Counted from the stretch's first letter, positions 12,624 through 62,981 are shown. The stretch is 64,000 nucleotides of DNA from a virus (IMGVR_UViG_2681813421_000002:1-64000); one strand, 5' to 3'. Translations and numbers: made by a program. Notes: generated by a model not told the origin, from the letters alone.

Positions 12624-12753
12624 GGTTAAGCCCTAAATTCGGGCGCGGCGTGAAGGTTCTTTTGACGGGCTAACAATACCTACTTTGTGATTTAGTCAAT
12701 AGGTTTAGTAAAATAAAATATATTAACACGCATGTTGTTATGTGATTTAATTT

Positions 12754-56898: not shown

Positions 56899-57290
56899 TA
56901 CCAGCGAGATAAGCGAACGACGTGTTTTACCTTAGCGATCCACTTACCACGTGAGTTATTAATTACGGCCTGCGCCACCTTTAAGCTGACTTCAAAATCA
57001 GCCTTACGACCATCAGAATCCACCAGCGTTGCACCGTCTATTTCCGGCAGGCTTAAATAATCCTGTTCTACCTCTAATGGCATTGACGGCTCTCTGAATG
57101 GTGTCAATTGCCGAGCTTTCCAGATAAAGCGAACTCTCAATCCCCTATAAGCCATTACCATGTAGCCTGTTATCGTGCTCTTATGGCCTGCATCAGTACG
57201 CGCAGCATTACACGATACAATCTTACAGGTGACGATATTCCACTCCACATTGGATACTTCGTGAATGCTTAATTTTGTGGTCTCGTACAT
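56898..57290 (-). CDS. Hypothetical protein
   Basis: 130-aa ORF. Confidence 0.45.
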   Translation of the reverse strand: MYETTKLSIHEVSNVEWNIVTCKIVSCNAARTDAGHKSTITGYMVMAYRGLRVRFIWKARQLTPFREPSMPLEVEQDYLSLPEIDGATLVDSDGRKADFEVSLKVAQAVINNSRGKWIAKVKHVVRLSRW

Positions 57291-57865
57291 CAGAATGCCT
57301 CCCAGTCAGTCGCGATAATATCCACGCCAGTGGCGAACCAGTCTGTCTGTGCCTGTAAGTCTCCATTCATCATTACCAGCCGAGGCATAACCATCACATC
57401 GCACCCTTCCACAATATCGAATGCTTCTTCCGGCAGGAATTCGACGAGCTTTTCTTTGCTGCCTATACTGCCACGGAACATCGACATATAGCTCCCTTTA
57501 GGCCATGATGCCCGGCGGGCGTCAAGCCCCTTCATCATCCAGAACACGGCGGCAGAAAAATTGATGTTCTTTTTGGCGATGAAAACATTATTGGCTTCTG
57601 TTTGCTTCAGAAACTTAATTAGCCTTGCCATCGACTCTGATAACGCTACGTATGGCTCATGATTGGCTGCGGACACGCTCACACCATGTAATCCAACACT
57701 GACTACCGTCATATCGCCGCTTTGAGCGGTTTCAATGTTGACACCTTTGCGAACTAACGAGGCATAAAGTTCCTCTCGCTTTTGTGTCCAGCGTTCCCGC
57801 TGACCGATGAAGTCACTCAATATGAGATCTGCTTCTGCATACGCGTTATCGTTCGCCGTTAACAT
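57290..57865 (-). CDS. Hypothetical protein
   Basis: 191-aa ORF; stop overlaps next start. Confidence 0.45.
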   Translation of the reverse strand: MLTANDNAYAEADLILSDFIGQRERWTQKREELYASLVRKGVNIETAQSGDMTVVSVGLHGVSVSAANHEPYVALSESMARLIKFLKQTEANNVFIAKKNINFSAAVFWMMKGLDARRASWPKGSYMSMFRGSIGSKEKLVEFLPEEAFDIVEGCDVMVMPRLVMMNGDLQAQTDWFATGVDIIATDWEAF

Positions 57866-58318
57866 AACGTCTCCTTTTTACACGCGCGACCATCCCTCGG
57901 TTAAACCGATAGAGATGTCGAAACTTCGTATTAATTAAGGGTTACAGCCTGAGCGGCTATATGATGAATTGAAAGGAGTTGTGGCGGTGGTGCCTCCACC
58001 TGCCAGGTTAGCCACTCCTGGCGACGTCACTTATCAGAACGTAGTGAATGAAAATGGCTTCGTCACGAGCGCATAGCCGCAATTACCACAACGGAAACGG
58101 CGCTCACGCTAATTAAACGCCTTTTCCTGTTGTGCGCCGTACTCTTCCGGCTGTCACACCGAATCGCCAGGATGGTGAGTCCTCGGTCCGACGATATGAA
58201 CGGGGCTTGCACATTCCGGCTACCTGGTTTGTTGCCTGAGCTAGGGGAAAAGGTAACCCCTTTAACGTCACCAGACCGCTAACGACGCATGTGCCAGACG
58301 CCGTGTTACAACCAAATA

Positions 58319-58394
58319 TGGTGGCCCCTACCGGACTTGAACCGGTGACCGTGCGATTATGAGTCGCCAGCTCTAACCACTGAGCTAAAGGGCC
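58319..58394 (-). tRNA. tRNA with CAU anticodon, tRNA-Ile2 (lysidine)-like
   Basis: Cloverleaf with encoded CCA; resembles E. coli ileX as recalled. Confidence 0.85.
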
Positions 58395-58421
58395 GGATTA
58401 CTGCCAATTTTGCTTACGCTT

Positions 58422-59249
58422 TTATTTCACCGGAACAAACGGAACAGCGGCATTACTGGTCATATACTGCGGTAATGTACCGTTCCATTTGTTGATCGCT
58501 TCCAACTCCATAACACCGGGGTTCTGGCGCAGAGCTTCACCACGTAAACGAATGGCATCAGCTTCGGCCTGGGCTTTTGTGCGAATAGCATCAGCCTGTC
58601 CGGCAGCTTCCGCGCGCAGCATGTTGGCCTCTGCTTCACGTTGTTTGACCTCTTGCTCGCGTTGCAGGGTTTTTTGGTTTGCCGTAACTTTGGCGTTAAT
58701 ACTGTCAATAACTGTTGGCGGATATTCTGGCTTACCTACATAAGAGAGGCTCATCACCTGAATGCCGATTGGCGTCATTTCTTCCTGAATGTCTTTAAGG
58801 GCTGCATCAAGCAATTCAGATTTGCCACCGTCGATAAATTTGTCGGTGGTCATTTTGCTGGCTAACCGGTTCAGAGCATCTGCAACCTTCTGGCGTAGAT
58901 CGGTATCAGTAATATCATCTACACCTTTGCGATAGGTCTGAAATACCGTTGTGACTTTTGCTGGATCAACCTTGTAGGCTACGCCGATGTGGTAACCAAT
59001 GGTTGTTCCGTCGCTCATCTGGAAGCTGAACGGCTCATCGTATGTCTTCATTTGCTTAAAGGTCGGGAAGATATAAACTTCAGTATTCAAGCCTGTCCAG
59101 TAGCGACCAACACCAACTACTTCACCGATACCTTTATCATCCCCCAGCTTATTTACTTTGATCCCTACGTTACCTGGCTCTACCCGATCGCATCCGGTCA
59201 GACATAAAGAACCCAAAATAATCGCTGCACTAATCAACGTTTTTTTCAT
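58422..59249 (-). CDS. SPFH/band-7 (prohibitin-like) domain lipoprotein
   Basis: Lipoprotein signal peptide with lipobox LTGC; SPFH-like core followed by Ala/Glu/Gln-rich coiled-coil tail. Confidence 0.6.
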   Translation of the reverse strand: MKKTLISAAIILGSLCLTGCDRVEPGNVGIKVNKLGDDKGIGEVVGVGRYWTGLNTEVYIFPTFKQMKTYDEPFSFQMSDGTTIGYHIGVAYKVDPAKVTTVFQTYRKGVDDITDTDLRQKVADALNRLASKMTTDKFIDGGKSELLDAALKDIQEEMTPIGIQVMSLSYVGKPEYPPTVIDSINAKVTANQKTLQREQEVKQREAEANMLRAEAAGQADAIRTKAQAEADAIRLRGEALRQNPGVMELEAINKWNGTLPQYMTSNAAVPFVPVK

Positions 59250-59466
59250 TAATTAATTTCCTGGTTTTTTCACGAAAAAAGACTACTGCGAAAGCCGGGT
59301 AAATGAGCGCGAGAAGGACTCCCAACAATACAAGTATTGTGCTGTTAGATGAGATCATATTTGGCAAAAGCCAAACATACAGAACCAGTGACACAATCAA
59401 ACAGAGGACGGCATAAATATATAACCGCACCCATAGCGTTCGACATTTGTTCGGATTGTTCTGCAT
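59230..59466 (-). CDS. Small two-TM membrane protein, operon partner of SPFH lipoprotein
   Basis: 78 aa, two hydrophobic helices; overlaps SPFH start by 20 nt; GGAG RBS. Confidence 0.5.
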   Translation of the reverse strand: MQNNPNKCRTLWVRLYIYAVLCLIVSLVLYVWLLPNMISSNSTILVLLGVLLALIYPAFAVVFFREKTRKLINEKNVD

Positions 59467-59728
59467 CCTCTCACTCCATTATTTAACGAATAAAAAAGCT
59501 GCGGTGCCGGGTACCTCCCGGTGTCCTTTGGCTGGTTATCCACCGTGGACGGGGAAACAAGGAGAAATGAATGGACTGATATAACCATTTCCCCGCGTGC
59601 GCTTAGCCGCATTCACCGCAATGGTAAGAGCACTTGGCTGGCTGGGCGGCGATGACGCCTGTACGCATTTGGTGATCCGGTTCTGCTTCCGGCATTCGCT
59701 TAATTAGCCAAATACTCTTAACGTTGCA

Positions 59729-59815
59729 CTGGCGGAGAGTAATGGAATCGAACCATCATCGCTTGCGCAATGGGACGGTTTTCAAGACCGCTTGAGCACC
59801 ATGCTCCCTACTCTC
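59729..59815 (-). tRNA. tRNA-Ser (anticodon UGA)
   Basis: 87 nt, long variable arm, anticodon loop CUUGAAA, encoded CCA. Confidence 0.85.
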
Positions 59816-60188
59816 CCGTTATTGTGGCGACCGGTGCTGATCTCCGGCTTGCGGTTATTTCAGACTCTCACGGGCGTTTAATTGCCCCGCCGAACAGCTC
59901 TTTTCCGCAATAGCTGCAATGTCTTTCGCGCATCAGCCTGCGCATTCACCACAATGTTGAGAACACTGGTTGTCACGCTGCAACGCAACATTTATTCATA
60001 GATTGGGATATGACCCCGTTACGCCAGTGTTCTCAACGTTGTAGTGCCGGTTACGGTTCCGGCCAGGCCTCTTCCTCAACGGGGTGTTCTCCATACGGAC
60101 TACCGTTTATTGGTCGTTCCTGCGGTTTATGTTGTGAAGCCAGATGCTTATCTTCTGGTTGCTTCAAAGAGCTGCACTTCATCACAAC

Positions 60189-60262
60189 GGTAAGGGTACT
60201 TCGTAGGGATTCGAACCCTCTGCCAAGCACGGCGATCTCCGACGTCGCAAAATACCCTTACC
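60189..60262 (-). other. tRNA-like fragment (T-arm GGTTCGAATCC with 7-bp terminal pairing, no canonical D/anticodon arms)
   Basis: GGTAAGG...GAGGGTTCGAATCCCT...CCTTACC; fails cloverleaf, no CCA. Confidence 0.35.
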
Positions 60263-60270
60263 TGTTGTGT

Positions 60271-60347
60271 TGGTGCCGGTTAACGGACTCGAACCGCTGA
60301 CATCCTGCTTACAAGGCAGGCGCTCTACCAACTGAGCTAAACCGGCA
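60271..60347 (-). tRNA. tRNA-Thr (anticodon UGU)
   Basis: Cloverleaf with anticodon loop CUUGUAA and encoded CCA. Confidence 0.8.
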
Positions 60348-60348
60348 T

Positions 60349-60425
60349 TGGCGATGGTGGGTGGATTCGAACCACCGACCGACAGCTTAGAAGGCTGCTG
60401 CTCTATCCTACTGAGCTACACCATC
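60349..60425 (-). tRNA. tRNA-Arg (anticodon UCU, reads AGA)
   Basis: Anticodon loop CUUCUAA, T-loop GGTTCGAATCC, encoded CCA; 1 nt from tRNA-Thr. Confidence 0.85.
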
Positions 60426-60429
60426 ACTT

Positions 60430-61630
60430 GCCGGGTACGTCTCCGGCGAGGGCTTCCACCTCCGTATGCTTTTCGGCGCACCGCGCCCTGGCTGCAATTC
60501 GGTAACAGGGGATGCACAACCCTGGCTTCCAGCGTGATTAGCGCCTTCAGCATGACGGGATATACCCGTAGTAGGATGTTATCCCAGAAAGCCATTAATC
60601 AATGGCTGTTACGCGGGAGGGACGTAACAGGTAAGGGCGCTGACCAGAAAGACCTGACCCTTCTCATTCATCTGGTTAATCACACCAGCACCCTTGCCTG
60701 TTATGCCTCCCCGTTCCCTAATACACAGACGGGGACACTCTGCGGTCGATTTTTTGACGGGGGACGACTCATACCCCGTGGCGTCAGGCTTCTTAGGCCG
60801 CTACCATCATCAGATCATCGTTTGCATTTACTTTAATGGTCGGGTTCTAAACCGCCGCAAAGTCGCTAACCATGACGAAAACCCTAAAAAAGCCCACCCG
60901 AAGATGGGCAAATACGCTACATCTCACACAAGAAAGAAGCCGACTGCCTGAGCTGGATTCACTTTCAAATGCCCGCTGAAAGGGATCACAAGTCGGCTTC
61001 TTTCTTGATGCGGCACTCTCTCCGCCCGTCACCGCTCTGTCTCGGTTGTCGCGTTTGCCACGCCAGCCGTAACGAGGTTTAAAGTCTTTGCACGTTTCCA
61101 TCACTCGACTGCCGTCTGTGGCTGTTCGTTGCAGCGGGGGTGCCTCCCCCTGGGGATATCCCCGGCCTTACCCCATTCTTTCAAGACACAATGCAAGGCC
61201 ACATCCGCATAGGTGCATTACTGCAACATTAAGGAGACTCAGGGCAAAAGGTAACCGCCACAAAAATCCCTATGCCTCCTTAATGTTGAAGACGTGCATT
61301 GATGATTAGATGCAGCATGTACCGTTACTCTCTGCCGGACCATCATCAATGAACACCTTAAAAAGACCTTCCGTGGCTCAACATGTATTGTCGTTTACTC
61401 CGCAAAGTGCTCTCTCTGAAACCACTTTCCGCACTAAACCTGCTGAACTTTGGCCTGCACGGTGCCAAAGCGTGCTCTTGCGTTACTACACTTTTCTAAC
61501 ACTTTAATTTGTTAAATGCTGGTGGGCAAACAATAACCAATAAGTGACTATCAAGCCCAGCAAGCGAAACGTGGGTACCGCCCACCAGCAAGGAAAATTC
61601 TATGTTAAGTTACCTTCACAATCAATACAT
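60430..61630. other. About 1.2-kb ORF-free, GC-rich structured region (candidate large ncRNA or regulatory locus)
   Basis: No convincing ORF on either strand; 17-bp perfect inverted repeat CAAGAAAGAAGCCGACT...AGTCGGCTTCTTTCTTG at 60931-61009; many shorter hairpins. Confidence 0.3.
61493..61512 (+). promoter_or_regulatory. Operator-like motif CACTTTTCTAACACTTTAAT
   Basis: TCTAACA core. Confidence 0.45.
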
Positions 61631-61633
61631 TCG

Positions 61634-61656
61634 AATTGTGAATTTAGTTTTCTAAC
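61634..61656 (+). promoter_or_regulatory. Operator-like motif TTTAGTTTTCTAACATATTATTT
   Basis: Near-identical to sites at 40061 and 62892; at 3' end of 61660-62868 gene. Confidence 0.5.
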
Positions 61657-61659
61657 ATA

Positions 61660-62868
61660 TTATTTCCCGTAAAGATCTTCTACACCCCCATTCTTCTTAT
61701 CCCATTCGTTCGCCCATACCCGGCAAGCGTCAATGATTTCCTGACGACGATCTCCTTGCATGAACGGAATGCTTTCATGGAAACAGCTTGGAATGCAGGC
61801 CACACTGAATACAGTATCAAACTCCGTCTGCTTGATTGCCTCCAGCGTCTCCGGACGCATTTTTAATTCATCGATTGGCGCATCCTTAGAGTCCATAATC
61901 CGGCGATATAAGCGCGGAAAATCCGTCTCCAGGTACGCCATAATTTTATCTGCGAGACATTCGTCTATGTCGGTATTCCAGTCCTTTTCGAAGCCCGGCA
62001 GGCGATAGTAAAGCGGCGTTCCCCATACCGATGGGATCACATCCATCGTTAACAGGCGATTAGTTCTGATTTGTTGATGGTAATTAGCCGTCAGCAGTGC
62101 TTCGCCACGCTGCCCAGTTTCCGCAACCAGGCCGTGCGGATACTCATGGATGTAGGCAATGGCATCCCTTCCATCATACATAAGTGGAAATGTCTCTGGT
62201 CTTTGTCCCATGCCACAAGCACGGTTCAGATCGTGACCAAGCTGTGAGCACTCTCGCTTTAATGTTTCGATAATGCTCTGCGCTGTAGCCAACTTTTTAC
62301 GCAGTGTGACGCCTTCGCCTTGATAATCAATGCATTGCTGATTGAGCTTGGTTAAACGCTCTTTTAGTTCCCGGCGCTCTCTTTTCAGCGTGCGGTTATC
62401 CTTCTCCGCAACATCCAGCCGCTTTGTCAGGCTTGGCGGATAGTCTTTTTTGTAACGGTTCAAATCGGCTTCGGCAGATTTACGCAGTGTATTTGCCTGT
62501 TCAAGACGCGCTTCCAGATTGCCGATCTCATTACGCATATTCGCGGCAAATTGATTAACTGCATCACCCAGGCTTTCAACTGTCGCTGATACGCCTGTGA
62601 CTTGTGAAAAACGGATCAAGCCATCATTAACGGCTTGTTGGTATTCCTCAAACTGATCCACCAGCTTATTGTAATCAACTGCCCCATCATCAAGCAGCTT
62701 GTTGATTTCCGCCACCAGGTTATCTGTAGTGGCAATGACACTCTCGTGCAGTCGCTTTGACAGGTCATCACCCGGATTCCGTTTCTGTATAAGAGCGATT
62801 TGTGTGCGCAGCGTTTCAATTGCTGTCGAGATAATTTCCAGATTAGAAGTATCAGTGTGTTGACTCAT
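61660..62868 (-). CDS. Hypothetical coiled-coil protein, operator-flanked (early function candidate)
   Basis: 402 aa; N-terminal 200 aa heptad-rich, C-terminal globular part with Cys/His residues; operator motifs at both ends. Confidence 0.5.
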   Translation of the reverse strand: MSQHTDTSNLEIISTAIETLRTQIALIQKRNPGDDLSKRLHESVIATTDNLVAEINKLLDDGAVDYNKLVDQFEEYQQAVNDGLIRFSQVTGVSATVESLGDAVNQFAANMRNEIGNLEARLEQANTLRKSAEADLNRYKKDYPPSLTKRLDVAEKDNRTLKRERRELKERLTKLNQQCIDYQGEGVTLRKKLATAQSIIETLKRECSQLGHDLNRACGMGQRPETFPLMYDGRDAIAYIHEYPHGLVAETGQRGEALLTANYHQQIRTNRLLTMDVIPSVWGTPLYYRLPGFEKDWNTDIDECLADKIMAYLETDFPRLYRRIMDSKDAPIDELKMRPETLEAIKQTEFDTVFSVACIPSCFHESIPFMQGDRRQEIIDACRVWANEWDKKNGGVEDLYGK

Positions 62869-62891
62869 TGCTGTTCCCGTTACCTTGTTAA

Positions 62892-62913
62892 ATTAGTTTT
62901 CTAACATATTTTA
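62892..62913 (+). promoter_or_regulatory. Operator-like motif ATTAGTTTTCTAACATATTTTA
   Basis: In 5' leader of the 61660-62868 gene. Confidence 0.55.
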
Positions 62914-62947
62914 TTAGTTTGATGACGGTATCGGAAGATGCAATAAA

Positions 62948-62977
62948 CAAAAAACCCGCTAATTGGCGGGTTTTTAT
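62948..62977. terminator. Bidirectional Rho-independent terminator
   Basis: A-run, ACCCGC-taattg-GCGGGT hairpin, T-run. Confidence 0.7.
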
Positions 62978-62981
62978 GCAA

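Follow-up and report, generated by a model that had tools for sequence, protein, structure and literature searches.

A conserved phage RNA element with a transfer-messenger RNA-like tag frame in the protein-free DNA of a D6/P1-like tRNA island

Introduction

What is encoded by the stretches of a phage tRNA island that hold no protein gene? The question is raised by positions 57,866-61,630 of the viral stretch IMGVR_UViG_2681813421_000002:1-64000 (64,000 nt, analysed as a whole and hereafter called the window), where four tRNA genes are interspersed with gaps lacking any credible open reading frame (ORF). A first-pass annotation, made from the sequence alone, had proposed that these gaps may encode one or more undescribed non-coding RNAs (ncRNAs), had named decayed genes and packaging or recombination sites as alternatives, and had suggested an Rfam scan and a comparative alignment for covariation as checks. 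The analysis presented here yielded one such RNA, a 'tag-pseudoknot' element at 60690-60893 on the minus strand that occurs in 247 phage records, has covarying helices and a covarying pseudoknot, belongs to no Rfam family at threshold, and contains a ten-codon frame in a sequence context of the transfer-messenger RNA (tmRNA) type.

The window is assigned to a D6/P1-like phage-plasmid on the strength of a C4 antisense RNA (P1/P7 immunity type) encoded in it and of its matches to plasmids and to D6: E. coli and Salmonella plasmids of ~90 kb match the region in question over its full length at 95-96% identity, and phage D6 matches at 97% over two thirds of it.

Results

Position and spread of the element

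The 1.2-kb block at 60430-61630 had been singled out as possible ncRNA. What stood of this claim is an element of ~200 nt; the remainder of the block proved to be a lineage-specific leader with modest covariation. One large RNA spanning the block was considered and rejected, since only 60690-60893 is shared beyond P1-like elements. The element and its parts are as follows.

60690-60893, minus strand: conserved 'tag-pseudoknot' RNA element, scored by covariance model R1 at 79.8 bits (E=3.5e-20), the sole match in the window
60793-60830, minus strand: resume context UAAAU and ten-codon frame GCA AAC GAT GAT CTG ATG ATG GTA GCG GCC TAA (ANDDLMMVAA-stop), with the resume codon at 60823-60825 and the stop codon at 60793-60795
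60757-60779, minus strand: hairpin A, whose loop GUCG (60765-60768) pairs with CGAC (60745-60748) to form an H-type pseudoknot
60709-60734, minus strand: hairpin B, with the conserved loop GUGU.AUUA and double changes at 4/4 stem pairs

A distant BLAST search with 171 nt against a phage collection placed the element in 247 phage records: Punavirus (P1/P7/D6), lambdoid phages, Schitoviridae (KP8, Bp4), Kuttervirus (PM10 and many others), and Skatevirus/T1-like phages (KFS-SE2, Sf11), with hosts in Escherichia, Salmonella, Klebsiella, Shigella, Cronobacter, Serratia, Enterobacter, Erwinia, and Aeromonas. In the records sampled, the element was either not annotated or covered only by a 'hypothetical protein', and the literature searched held no description of a tmRNA-like element in P1 or lambdoid phages.

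The surroundings of the element differ from phage to phage. Lambdoid copies lie in a gap of ~970 nt free of coding sequences (CDS) that runs from the Q antiterminator to the holin gene, just after pR'/tR'; the KP8 copy lies inside a tRNA cluster, the PM10 copy in a 2.1-kb CDS-free gap preceding a tRNA, and the KFS-SE2 copy 360 nt upstream of tRNA-Met(CAU) and tRNA-Arg(UCU), with its own TTGACA-17-TAGATT promoter. What stands directly upstream also varies: a terminator in some phages, a promoter in others, and in others again the 3' strand of a long hairpin formed locally. The idea that the element always belongs to a tRNA island was rejected, as only 118/205 copies have a same-strand tRNA within 1 kb downstream.

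Within the P1 family, the P1 leader and 60426-60912 of the window are ~91% identical between the terminator-like hairpin that they share and the first tRNA. The best-conserved stretch of this leader shows no change among 62 distinct variants, Klebsiella plasmids of 73% overall identity among them, and reads ...UUUUCGUC...GCGACUUUGCGG...UUUAGAACCCGACCAUUAAAGUAAAU GCA AAC GAU GAU CUG AUG AUG GUA GCG GCC UAA...; the frame region is also the best-conserved part of the element as a whole.

A separate observation concerns the IncY P1-like plasmid pSCKLB684-mcr of Klebsiella pneumoniae (locus L127, 2786-4117), in which the element has a TnpB gene (IS605-family) inserted directly at its 5' side. Copies of this type have the UUUUCG/GCGACUUUGCGG part removed and hairpin A missing (a 36-nt deletion), and their model score falls from ~80 to 49 bits.

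A ten-codon frame with coding-type constraint

The frame opens in a resume context of the tmRNA type, UAAAU followed by GCA AAC GAY. A pattern scan that excluded the P1 type hit >120 viral contigs, of which 121 loci were fetched, and the resume context can be taken as genuine because ARAGORN calls ordinary, bona fide tmRNAs with this same context in 80 of these 121 loci. Six loci without a tmRNA call are lambdoid prophages with the ten-codon frames ANDDLMLMAA or ANDDVVLMAA.

In the variants inspected, the frame is not preceded by an ATG or GTG start, and eight codons before it there is a stop in the same frame. All 246 element copies examined (~250 loci) have exactly ten codons plus a stop, and the stop codon sits in a small hairpin. 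The peptides come in ~20 variants that follow the pattern AN(D/E)xxxxx(A/V)A, for example ANDDLMMVAA, ANDDVVLMAA, ANEEMYLAVA, ANDEQFLAVA, ANDDLMLMAA, ANDDQFLAVA, ANDNTFLAVA, ANEERFLMAA, and ANDTEFKAAA; the tag of E. coli tmRNA is ANDENYALAA.

How the frame varies is informative. Among 32 unique nucleotide versions of the tag, the pairs that differ by a single nucleotide are synonymous in 13/22 cases, against 23% expected, and the difference falls on the third codon position in 14/22. Read in the other two frames, 3/21 and 6/22 of the differences are synonymous, which is no excess. The tag frame is evidently conserved as a peptide, a constraint of the coding type.

Covarying helices and a pseudoknot

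For the comparative alignment, a covariance model with three nested helices over the tag region was used; 72 matches were realigned and 68 distinct sequences were counted. Paired cells made up 91.1% (77.9 ± 0.6 in shuffles), double-change cells numbered 173 (52.6 ± 6), and the covariation score was 0.393 (0.170 when shuffled, and 0.02-0.11 in slid-partner controls), with 0/500 shuffles in each case, although these counts for the nested helices are inflated by an alignment that was fitted to those same helices, which weakens them as support for the reading favoured below. The pseudoknot lies outside the model and is free of that bias.

Hairpin A covaries at alignment positions 58:113 (CG41/UA26), 59:112 (GC38/AU26), and 60:111 (AU51/GC15), and the pseudoknot at 70:126 (GC46/AU12) and 71:123 (AU49/GC15). 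In the pseudoknot, CCGA:UCGG alternates with CCAG:CUGG, and the P1 type uses GUCG:CGAC in a shifted register. Both the helices and the pseudoknot covary on the 68 distinct sequences, so that the proposed covariation check supports a structured RNA. There is one H-type pseudoknot and two hairpins 3' of the tag; a PK1 upstream of the tag was not established, as the sequences there are invariant.

Comparison with tmRNA models and the search for a tRNA-like domain

The Rfam scan, run at threshold and by E-value, found tRNAs within the island and C4 and isrK elsewhere in the window as known families, no family at threshold for the element, and otherwise only sub-threshold matches to STnc100 and to tmRNA models. 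In the sub-threshold tmRNA alignments, the tmRNA_permuted consensus UAAaUGCaAACGAu...GCugUaGCuGCcUAA falls over the same letters at the tag in both the window and P1. ARAGORN, when relaxed to 80-85% thresholds, proposes permuted tmRNAs that contain the correct tag for the window as well as for KP8 and PM10.

Several results weigh against the explanation favoured below. The tmRNA_permuted model remains below its gathering score of 47 with 22.8 bits in the window, 24.1 in P1, and 39.0 in lambdoid locus L224, and the beta_tmRNA model, which aligns to the tag and the 3' hairpin, remains at 9-17 bits, below its gathering score of 84. ARAGORN calls no tmRNA at the element by default, and its low-threshold (70-85%) assignments of acceptor and T arm are weak, differ between phages, and include a nonsense call on the opposite (plus) strand. 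T arms found within -500 to +900 nt of the element keep no fixed distance and mostly belong to ordinary tRNAs, and the fragments of a T arm plus NNN plus NNNNUCC (GCUCC) found in Kuttervirus, L224, and L324 have no 7-bp acceptor partner. Exhaustive published tmRNA surveys, which included RefSeq viruses, report phage tmRNAs in other groups only (PMC4131195, PMC11915505) and no such genes in enterobacterial phages (PMC4131195). Furthermore, the element of the P1/D6 type sits directly behind a terminator, making its expression dependent on read-through.

A 7-bp acceptor stem with G3:U70, a T arm at a fixed position, and a 3' (A)CCA end were not found for the element, and 8-mer complements of the 14 nt upstream of the UUUUCG box turned out to be local hairpin partners only. 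A GGGG-UUG-CUCC 'microhelix' in one lambdoid phage was tried as the acceptor and rejected, not being conserved in its relatives. Judged by its sequence, the element falls outside the tmRNA class for want of a recognisable tRNA-like domain. The surveys recognise 'no-CDS' forms of tmRNA and no 'tag-only' form (PMC4131195, PMC11915505), and the 2025 update counts 79 phage sequences without itemising their identities (PMC11915505).

Two loci hold a sequence of another kind directly 3' of hairpin B, a tRNA-like domain of ~122 nt (KP8, L255, 1670-1793; PM10, L257, ~1693-1814). The KP8 domain ends in ACCAGUA-A-CCA and the PM10 domain in AACGGC-U-CCA; both have an imperfect T arm and no G3:U70, and no tool calls either of them a tRNA.

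Candidate operator, promoter, and leader upstream of the element

The sequence between the preceding gene and the first tRNA can be divided as follows, in the direction of transcription.

61644-61655, minus strand: 12-nt palindrome TTAGAAAACTAA, a candidate D6-type C1 operator, directly after the stop codon of the pmgS-like gene and 19 nt upstream of the -35 box
61597-61625, minus strand: sigma-70 promoter-like site TTGATT-17-TAGAAT, from a consensus scan
61010-61596, minus strand: putative D6-lineage leader RNA 'D2', made up of a hairpin array (61217-61596) and a nearly invariant core (61010-61216)
61214-61298, minus strand: long hairpin in D2, inverted repeat I1 (arms 61214-61244 and 61268-61298)
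60929-60945/60991-61007, minus strand: perfect 17-bp inverted-repeat hairpin, arms 45 nt apart
60886-60909, minus strand: intrinsic terminator-like hairpin GCCCATCTTCGGGTGGGC followed by T6, at the end of D2
60626-60702, minus strand: long hairpin with the stem ACAGGCAAGGGTGC/GCGCCCTTACCTGT, a member of a recurrent hairpin family, without a T arm
60426-60625, minus strand: P1-family-specific spacer reaching up to the tRNA, with a hypervariable mini-hairpin at 60590-60607

The palindrome TTAGAAAACTAA occurs in six exact and two one-mismatch copies in the 64-kb window (at 12753, 34839, 40061, 52347, 52436, 56870, 61644, and 62893), with a chance expectation of ~0.008. Copies stand upstream of an lpa-like gene, near c4, and upstream of pmgS, and a hexamer resembling TAAAAT/TAATAT usually precedes them. 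The P1 C1 operator consensus has zero sites in the window at up to three mismatches. I infer from this distribution that the palindrome is a candidate operator of a D6-type C1 repressor. Its identification with the -22 box of P1 late promoters (AAGTTACTT / ATGTGACTT) was rejected, because the sequences differ. Both hexamers of the promoter-like site are kept among variants of 82-100% identity, while the spacer between them varies.

The D6-specific part of the leader, 60912-61630, occurs in 120 D6-type plasmids and is absent from P1. RNAalifold on 21 variants of D2 predicts 191 pairs, nine of them with compensatory changes that come mostly from one lineage. The best-supported hairpins are the one at 61214-61298, with the compensatory pairs CG8/UA7/UG6, AU17/GC3, and GC17/AU3, and the perfect 17-bp repeat at 60929-61007, with two (AU18/UA3 and GC18/AU3). 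The core has two distant partial homologues: ~110 nt (61017-61126) recur at ~81% identity in a Pantoea phage-plasmid (L126, 4001-4410), and 61043-61067 is conserved both there and in a Mixta genome (L133, 2829-2853). In the Pantoea plasmid, a tRNA-like gene of 99 nt (Rfam tRNA, 45 bits; no ARAGORN call) comes after the core match, and 3' of this gene stands a terminator with a sub-threshold RprA match. The terminator-like hairpin of the window corresponds to the 3' part of the 'dicF-like region' of P1, and its exact 18-mer is found in >119 viral contigs. D2 may best be described as a lineage-specific leader with an attenuator, for which the support at the level of RNA function is modest.

Below the terminator, the 60426-60625 spacer is kept only in P1, P7, D6, and Klebsiella IncY plasmids. 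The hairpin at 60626-60702 has relatives that also follow hairpin B in other phages; its family (stem ACAGGUAAGRGC/GCYCUUWCCUGU) is scattered around the element in P1-like and lambdoid phages (L154, L258, L260, and others), and some members enclose a T arm and an anticodon-arm-like hairpin.

The block had further been described as GC-rich and dense in hairpins. Its GC content is raised only mildly (0.51-0.56 vs ~0.46-0.49 in the flanks), whereas the density of hairpins was borne out: relative to dinucleotide shuffles, the minimum free energy (MFE) on the minus strand has z-scores of -3.7 for 60426-60915 and -5.4 for 60886-61660. On the plus strand, the same two blocks give -3.5 and -4.6, and the strand can therefore not be told from folding energy alone. 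A 120-nt sliding scan resolved the signal into discrete peaks, i.e. patchy and not uniform structure. Very stable local structure was also seen outside the block, at 62860-62979 (z = -7.5 on the minus and -4.8 on the plus strand), which is intergenic, upstream of the pmgS-like gene, and adjoins a copy of the palindrome.

The remainder of the island

All genes of the island are on the minus strand. In transcription order, the pmgS-like gene comes first, followed by the 1.2-kb gap, tRNA-Arg(UCU), tRNA-Thr(UGU), a tRNA-like hairpin, a gap, tRNA-Ser(UGA), and another gap; after this second gap come a 78-aa membrane ORF, an SPFH lipoprotein gene, tRNA-Ile2(CAU), a 450-bp gap, and a 191-aa gene. Annotations by the Prokaryotic Genome Annotation Pipeline (PGAP) in relatives were used for comparison.

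61660-62868, minus strand: pmgS-like gene, followed by the 1.2-kb gap
60349-60425, minus strand: tRNA-Arg(UCU), found by ARAGORN and Rfam
60271-60346, minus strand: tRNA-Thr(UGU), found by ARAGORN and Rfam
60189-60262, minus strand: tRNA-like long hairpin with a 13-bp stem, an anticodon-arm-like hairpin, and a perfect T arm
59947-59969/60024-60046, minus strand: imperfect inverted-repeat hairpin, 23 nt, 91% complementary, arms 54 nt apart; local z -4.9
59730-59816, minus strand: tRNA-Ser(UGA), 87 nt, atypical, found by ARAGORN
59467-59729, minus strand: spacer with an STnc100-like stretch (59500-59620) and a 65-nt block (59641-59705)
58319-58394, minus strand: tRNA-Ile2(CAU), found by ARAGORN; named tRNA-Ile2 in the P1 annotation and tRNA-Ile by PGAP in relatives
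57866-58318, minus strand: spacer from tRNA-Ile2 to the Tad2-family gene, with a weak structure signal in the local scan
57290-57865, minus strand: 191-aa gene, named 'Thoeris anti-defense Tad2 family' or 'MW1434 family type I TA system toxin' by PGAP in relatives

Much of the earlier description of this region held up. ARAGORN recovered the four tRNAs, all on the minus strand; the reported tRNA-like fragment is the hairpin at 60189-60262; and the two inverted repeats exist as listed, ~2 nt off the positions first given for them. Both of these repeats lie outside the widely conserved element. As claimed, the gaps have no credible ORF: PGAP annotates neither CDS nor pseudogene there in three RefSeq relatives, the longest ORFs have no Pfam match, and those ORFs that match a PHROG are not conserved. 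This needs to be qualified for a 125-codon frame homologous to P1 'plp', which is open at 59923-60297 on the plus strand from a CTG start and was never called by PGAP. Being antisense to both tRNA-Thr and the tRNA-like hairpin, and rich in Cys, Ser, and Arg, it is probably best regarded as an ORF call on RNA genes.

The tRNA genes themselves vary within the family. The acceptor stem, D arm, and flanks of tRNA-Arg(UCU) are the same as those of the tRNA-Asn(GUU) found at this site in P1/D6 (L001/L002), and the differences are confined to the anticodon arm and T stem. Among P1-type loci, 70 have Asn and 16 have Arg as the first tRNA behind the element, and some variants have a tRNA-Tyr added; this looks like swapping of anticodons or cassettes within one tRNA scaffold. 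The tRNA-Ser(UGA) matches Rfam only through a sub-threshold tRNA-Sec hit (43.5 bits), and its homologue is named tRNA-Ser or tRNA-OTHER by PGAP; in the D6 record, tRNAscan-SE assigned no amino acid to it.

The gaps between the tRNAs contain pieces known from elsewhere. The tRNA-like hairpin at 60189-60262 is common to lambdoid prophages at 84-89% identity, and the same insert follows hairpin B at its 3' side in lambdoid locus L260. The 65-nt block at 59641-59705 is 100% identical to lambdoid prophage late-leader DNA upstream of the holin gene, and P1 carries the minus-strand segment 59500-59705 upstream of tciA. The STnc100 (RF02076) match at 59500-59620 (minus strand) scores 35.1 bits (E=3.8e-5, gathering 47) and covers model positions 31-147/206 only. 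At 98.8% identity, the P1 stretch annotated upl/plp corresponds to the 370-bp gap that contains the 54-nt-loop repeat, i.e. the hairpin at 59947-60046, and 58133-58318 is homologous to the trnI-ban spacer of P1. Because of the STnc100-like stretch and the lambdoid-identical 65-nt block in its gaps, the island reads as a mosaic of RNA modules common with lambdoid late leaders. It may also be meaningful that an anti-defence gene closes the tRNA/RNA island.

Discussion

The explanation I favour, with a probability of roughly 0.5, is that the ORF-free DNA is the transcribed non-coding backbone of a minus-strand operon, and that its conserved element is an RNA of phages, akin to the mRNA-like half of tmRNA, whose frame is decoded. 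Transcription, attenuation, decoding, and any effect on proteolysis are what I infer here; the homology, structure, coding-type constraint, and distribution of the element are observed. The island would then be the D6-type equivalent of the repressor-controlled ban operon of P1. The promoter beside the candidate operator would drive the structured leader of the D6 lineage, this leader would end in the intrinsic terminator, probably an attenuator, and read-through RNA would carry the ~200-nt element, the spacer, and the tRNAs, which would be released by normal tRNA processing. The frame would be decoded in lytic growth, most plausibly by rescued (stalled) ribosomes, giving the phage a tag of its own with a C-terminus that differs from the host's ...ALAA.

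A more tentative extension of this proposal, which I would not yet put at even odds, concerns the phages of Enterobacterales in general (P1, lambdoid, N4-like, Vi1-like, and T1-like): they may encode a tag RNA without a tRNA-like domain that is decoded on rescued ribosomes via a trans-acting or unrecognisable acceptor module, thereby re-programming trans-translation of the host. If this were true, the ClpXP-targeting ...ALAA would be replaced by ...MVAA, ...LMAA, or ...LAVA in lytic growth or upon cleavage of mRNA or tRNA by defence systems.

The explanation that comes next, which appears unlikely, is that the element is a structured leader or punctuation module of phage RNA islands, serving processing, stability, or attenuation, and that its tag is the undecoded vestige of a tmRNA fragment captured in ancient times. 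This would fit its location, which is always in CDS-free leaders (behind the terminator in P1/D6, behind tR' in lambdoid prophages, and within the tRNA cluster in KP8), the same-strand tRNAs downstream of more than half of the copies tallied above, the recurrent long hairpins around it that resemble processing signals, and the failure to find a tRNA-like domain. A vestige would, however, not be expected to keep exactly ten codons and a stop across five phage families, nor to have mostly synonymous or conservative changes in that frame only, with the frame region as its best-conserved part.

Less likely still is a putative decoy, an untranslated RNA that would titrate factors of trans-translation (the SmpB tail, S1, RNase R) and so damp host tagging in lytic growth. 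There is a precedent in the partial tmRNA of phage DS6A, a molecule similar to which inhibits tmRNA (PMC4131195, PMC11915505), conservation within the element is highest in the resume context and the pseudoknot, and its genomic contexts point to expression in the lytic phase. A decoy would need binding determinants, but neither peptide-level constraint on codons 4-10 nor synonymous drift at third positions.

I consider it highly improbable that the inverted repeats act at the DNA level, as sites of recombination, packaging, or replication, and not as RNA structures. The hairpin at 61214-61298 does have its loop inverted in one relative (L064), i.e. a flip between the arms at the DNA level, both strands fold about equally well, and the region is a recombination mosaic; yet pac lies within pacA and the other known cis sites of P1 lie elsewhere, G-U pairs are tolerated on the minus strand, and neither the pseudoknot nor the strand-specific tag frame can be explained at the DNA level. 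The decay of protein genes, finally, is barely credible and is rejected because the ORFs have no Pfam match and the one with the strongest PHROG match (plus strand, 60549-60836; phrog_27020, E=1e-44) is intact in only 22/126 relatives, with frame changes and stops elsewhere: the 59.9-60.3 kb segment does carry upl/plp in the P1 annotation, and the window keeps the Plp frame open, but that frame has the antisense position and composition described above, PGAP calls neither CDS nor pseudogenes in relatives, no ORF is conserved, and an 85-aa ORF at 60847-61104 (minus strand) crosses the hairpin and terminator and is not kept in Pantoea or L128. The 'hypothetical protein' calls of this region (P1 plp/upl, phrog_27020) are better explained as ORFs antisense to RNA genes.

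The element sits unannotated in the leaders of the much-studied P1- and lambda-type genomes, and in P1 it adjoins a feature labelled only 'dicF-like'. If it is decoded, phages would manipulate ribosome rescue and protein quality control via a template of their own, which would be a new layer of host take-over, and there would be a natural example of a tmRNA mRNA-like domain that works in the absence of a canonical tRNA-like domain, a case relevant to resume-codon selection. Even if undecoded, the element remains a structured RNA, widespread among phages, whose pseudoknot covaries. It is experimentally accessible in P1vir, lambda hybrids, and T1-like phages in E. coli K-12, a host for which ssrA, smpB, arfA, and clpX mutants exist.

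How does the locus compare with known systems? With the species 1 and 2 RNAs of T4, and with GOLLD and ROOL, the locus has in common a non-coding RNA that is co-located with phage tRNA genes and probably co-transcribed with them. A large RNA of the GOLLD or ROOL type, which the 1.2-kb block had brought to mind, has no Rfam match in the window at gathering or at E<=5, and unlike T4 species 1/2, GOLLD, and ROOL, the conserved unit here is ~200 nt and not 1.2 kb, and has a coding-type frame. STnc100 has been linked with PasD of lambdoid late regions, where Pas small RNAs and STnc100 are found near Q and the holin gene (bioRxiv 10.64898/2026.05.13.724894); the likeness to STnc100/PasD concerns another part of the island and not the tag element.

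The closest relative of the island as a whole is the ban operon of P1, whose order is Pban with a bivalent C1 operator, the 'dicF-like region', tRNA-Asn, tRNA-Thr, upl/plp (other strand), tciABC, tRNA-Ile2, and ban. The leader at 60426-60912 is shared at the identity given above, together with the terminator, and the tRNAs are at the same place. In contrast to P1, the D6-type block has ~700 nt extra (60910-61630) and no match to the C1 operator consensus of P1; pmgS takes the place of dmt upstream, and SPFH and Tad2 genes lie downstream in place of tciABC and ban. A DicF reading of the 'dicF-like region' was rejected, as neither the window nor P1 has an Rfam DicF match (E<=5-10); this P1 feature is mainly P1-specific sequence upstream of the shared terminator.

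For the element itself, mycobacteriophage DS6A provides another phage-encoded partial tmRNA, one that consists of the tRNA-like domain only and of which a similar molecule inhibits tmRNA (PMC4131195, PMC11915505); DS6A has the tRNA-like domain without the tag, and the element is the reverse. The element differs from tmRNA (ssrA) in having no tRNA-like domain that could be found and in scoring below the ARAGORN default and Rfam gathering thresholds, and from host tmRNA in being encoded by phages whose hosts have a one-piece tmRNA of their own and in C-termini of MVAA, LMAA, and LAVA instead of ...ALAA. It resembles tmRNA, and in particular the coding piece of the two-piece permuted tmRNA of betaproteobacteria (RF01850/RF04321), in its resume context (UAAAU, then GCA AAC GAY), in a ten-residue tag that starts with AN(D/E) and ends with a hydrophobic residue, (A/V)A, and a stop, in a stop codon placed in a small hairpin, in a hairpin and pseudoknot directly 3' of the tag, and in sub-threshold Rfam alignments that fall exactly over the tag and the parts 3' of it.

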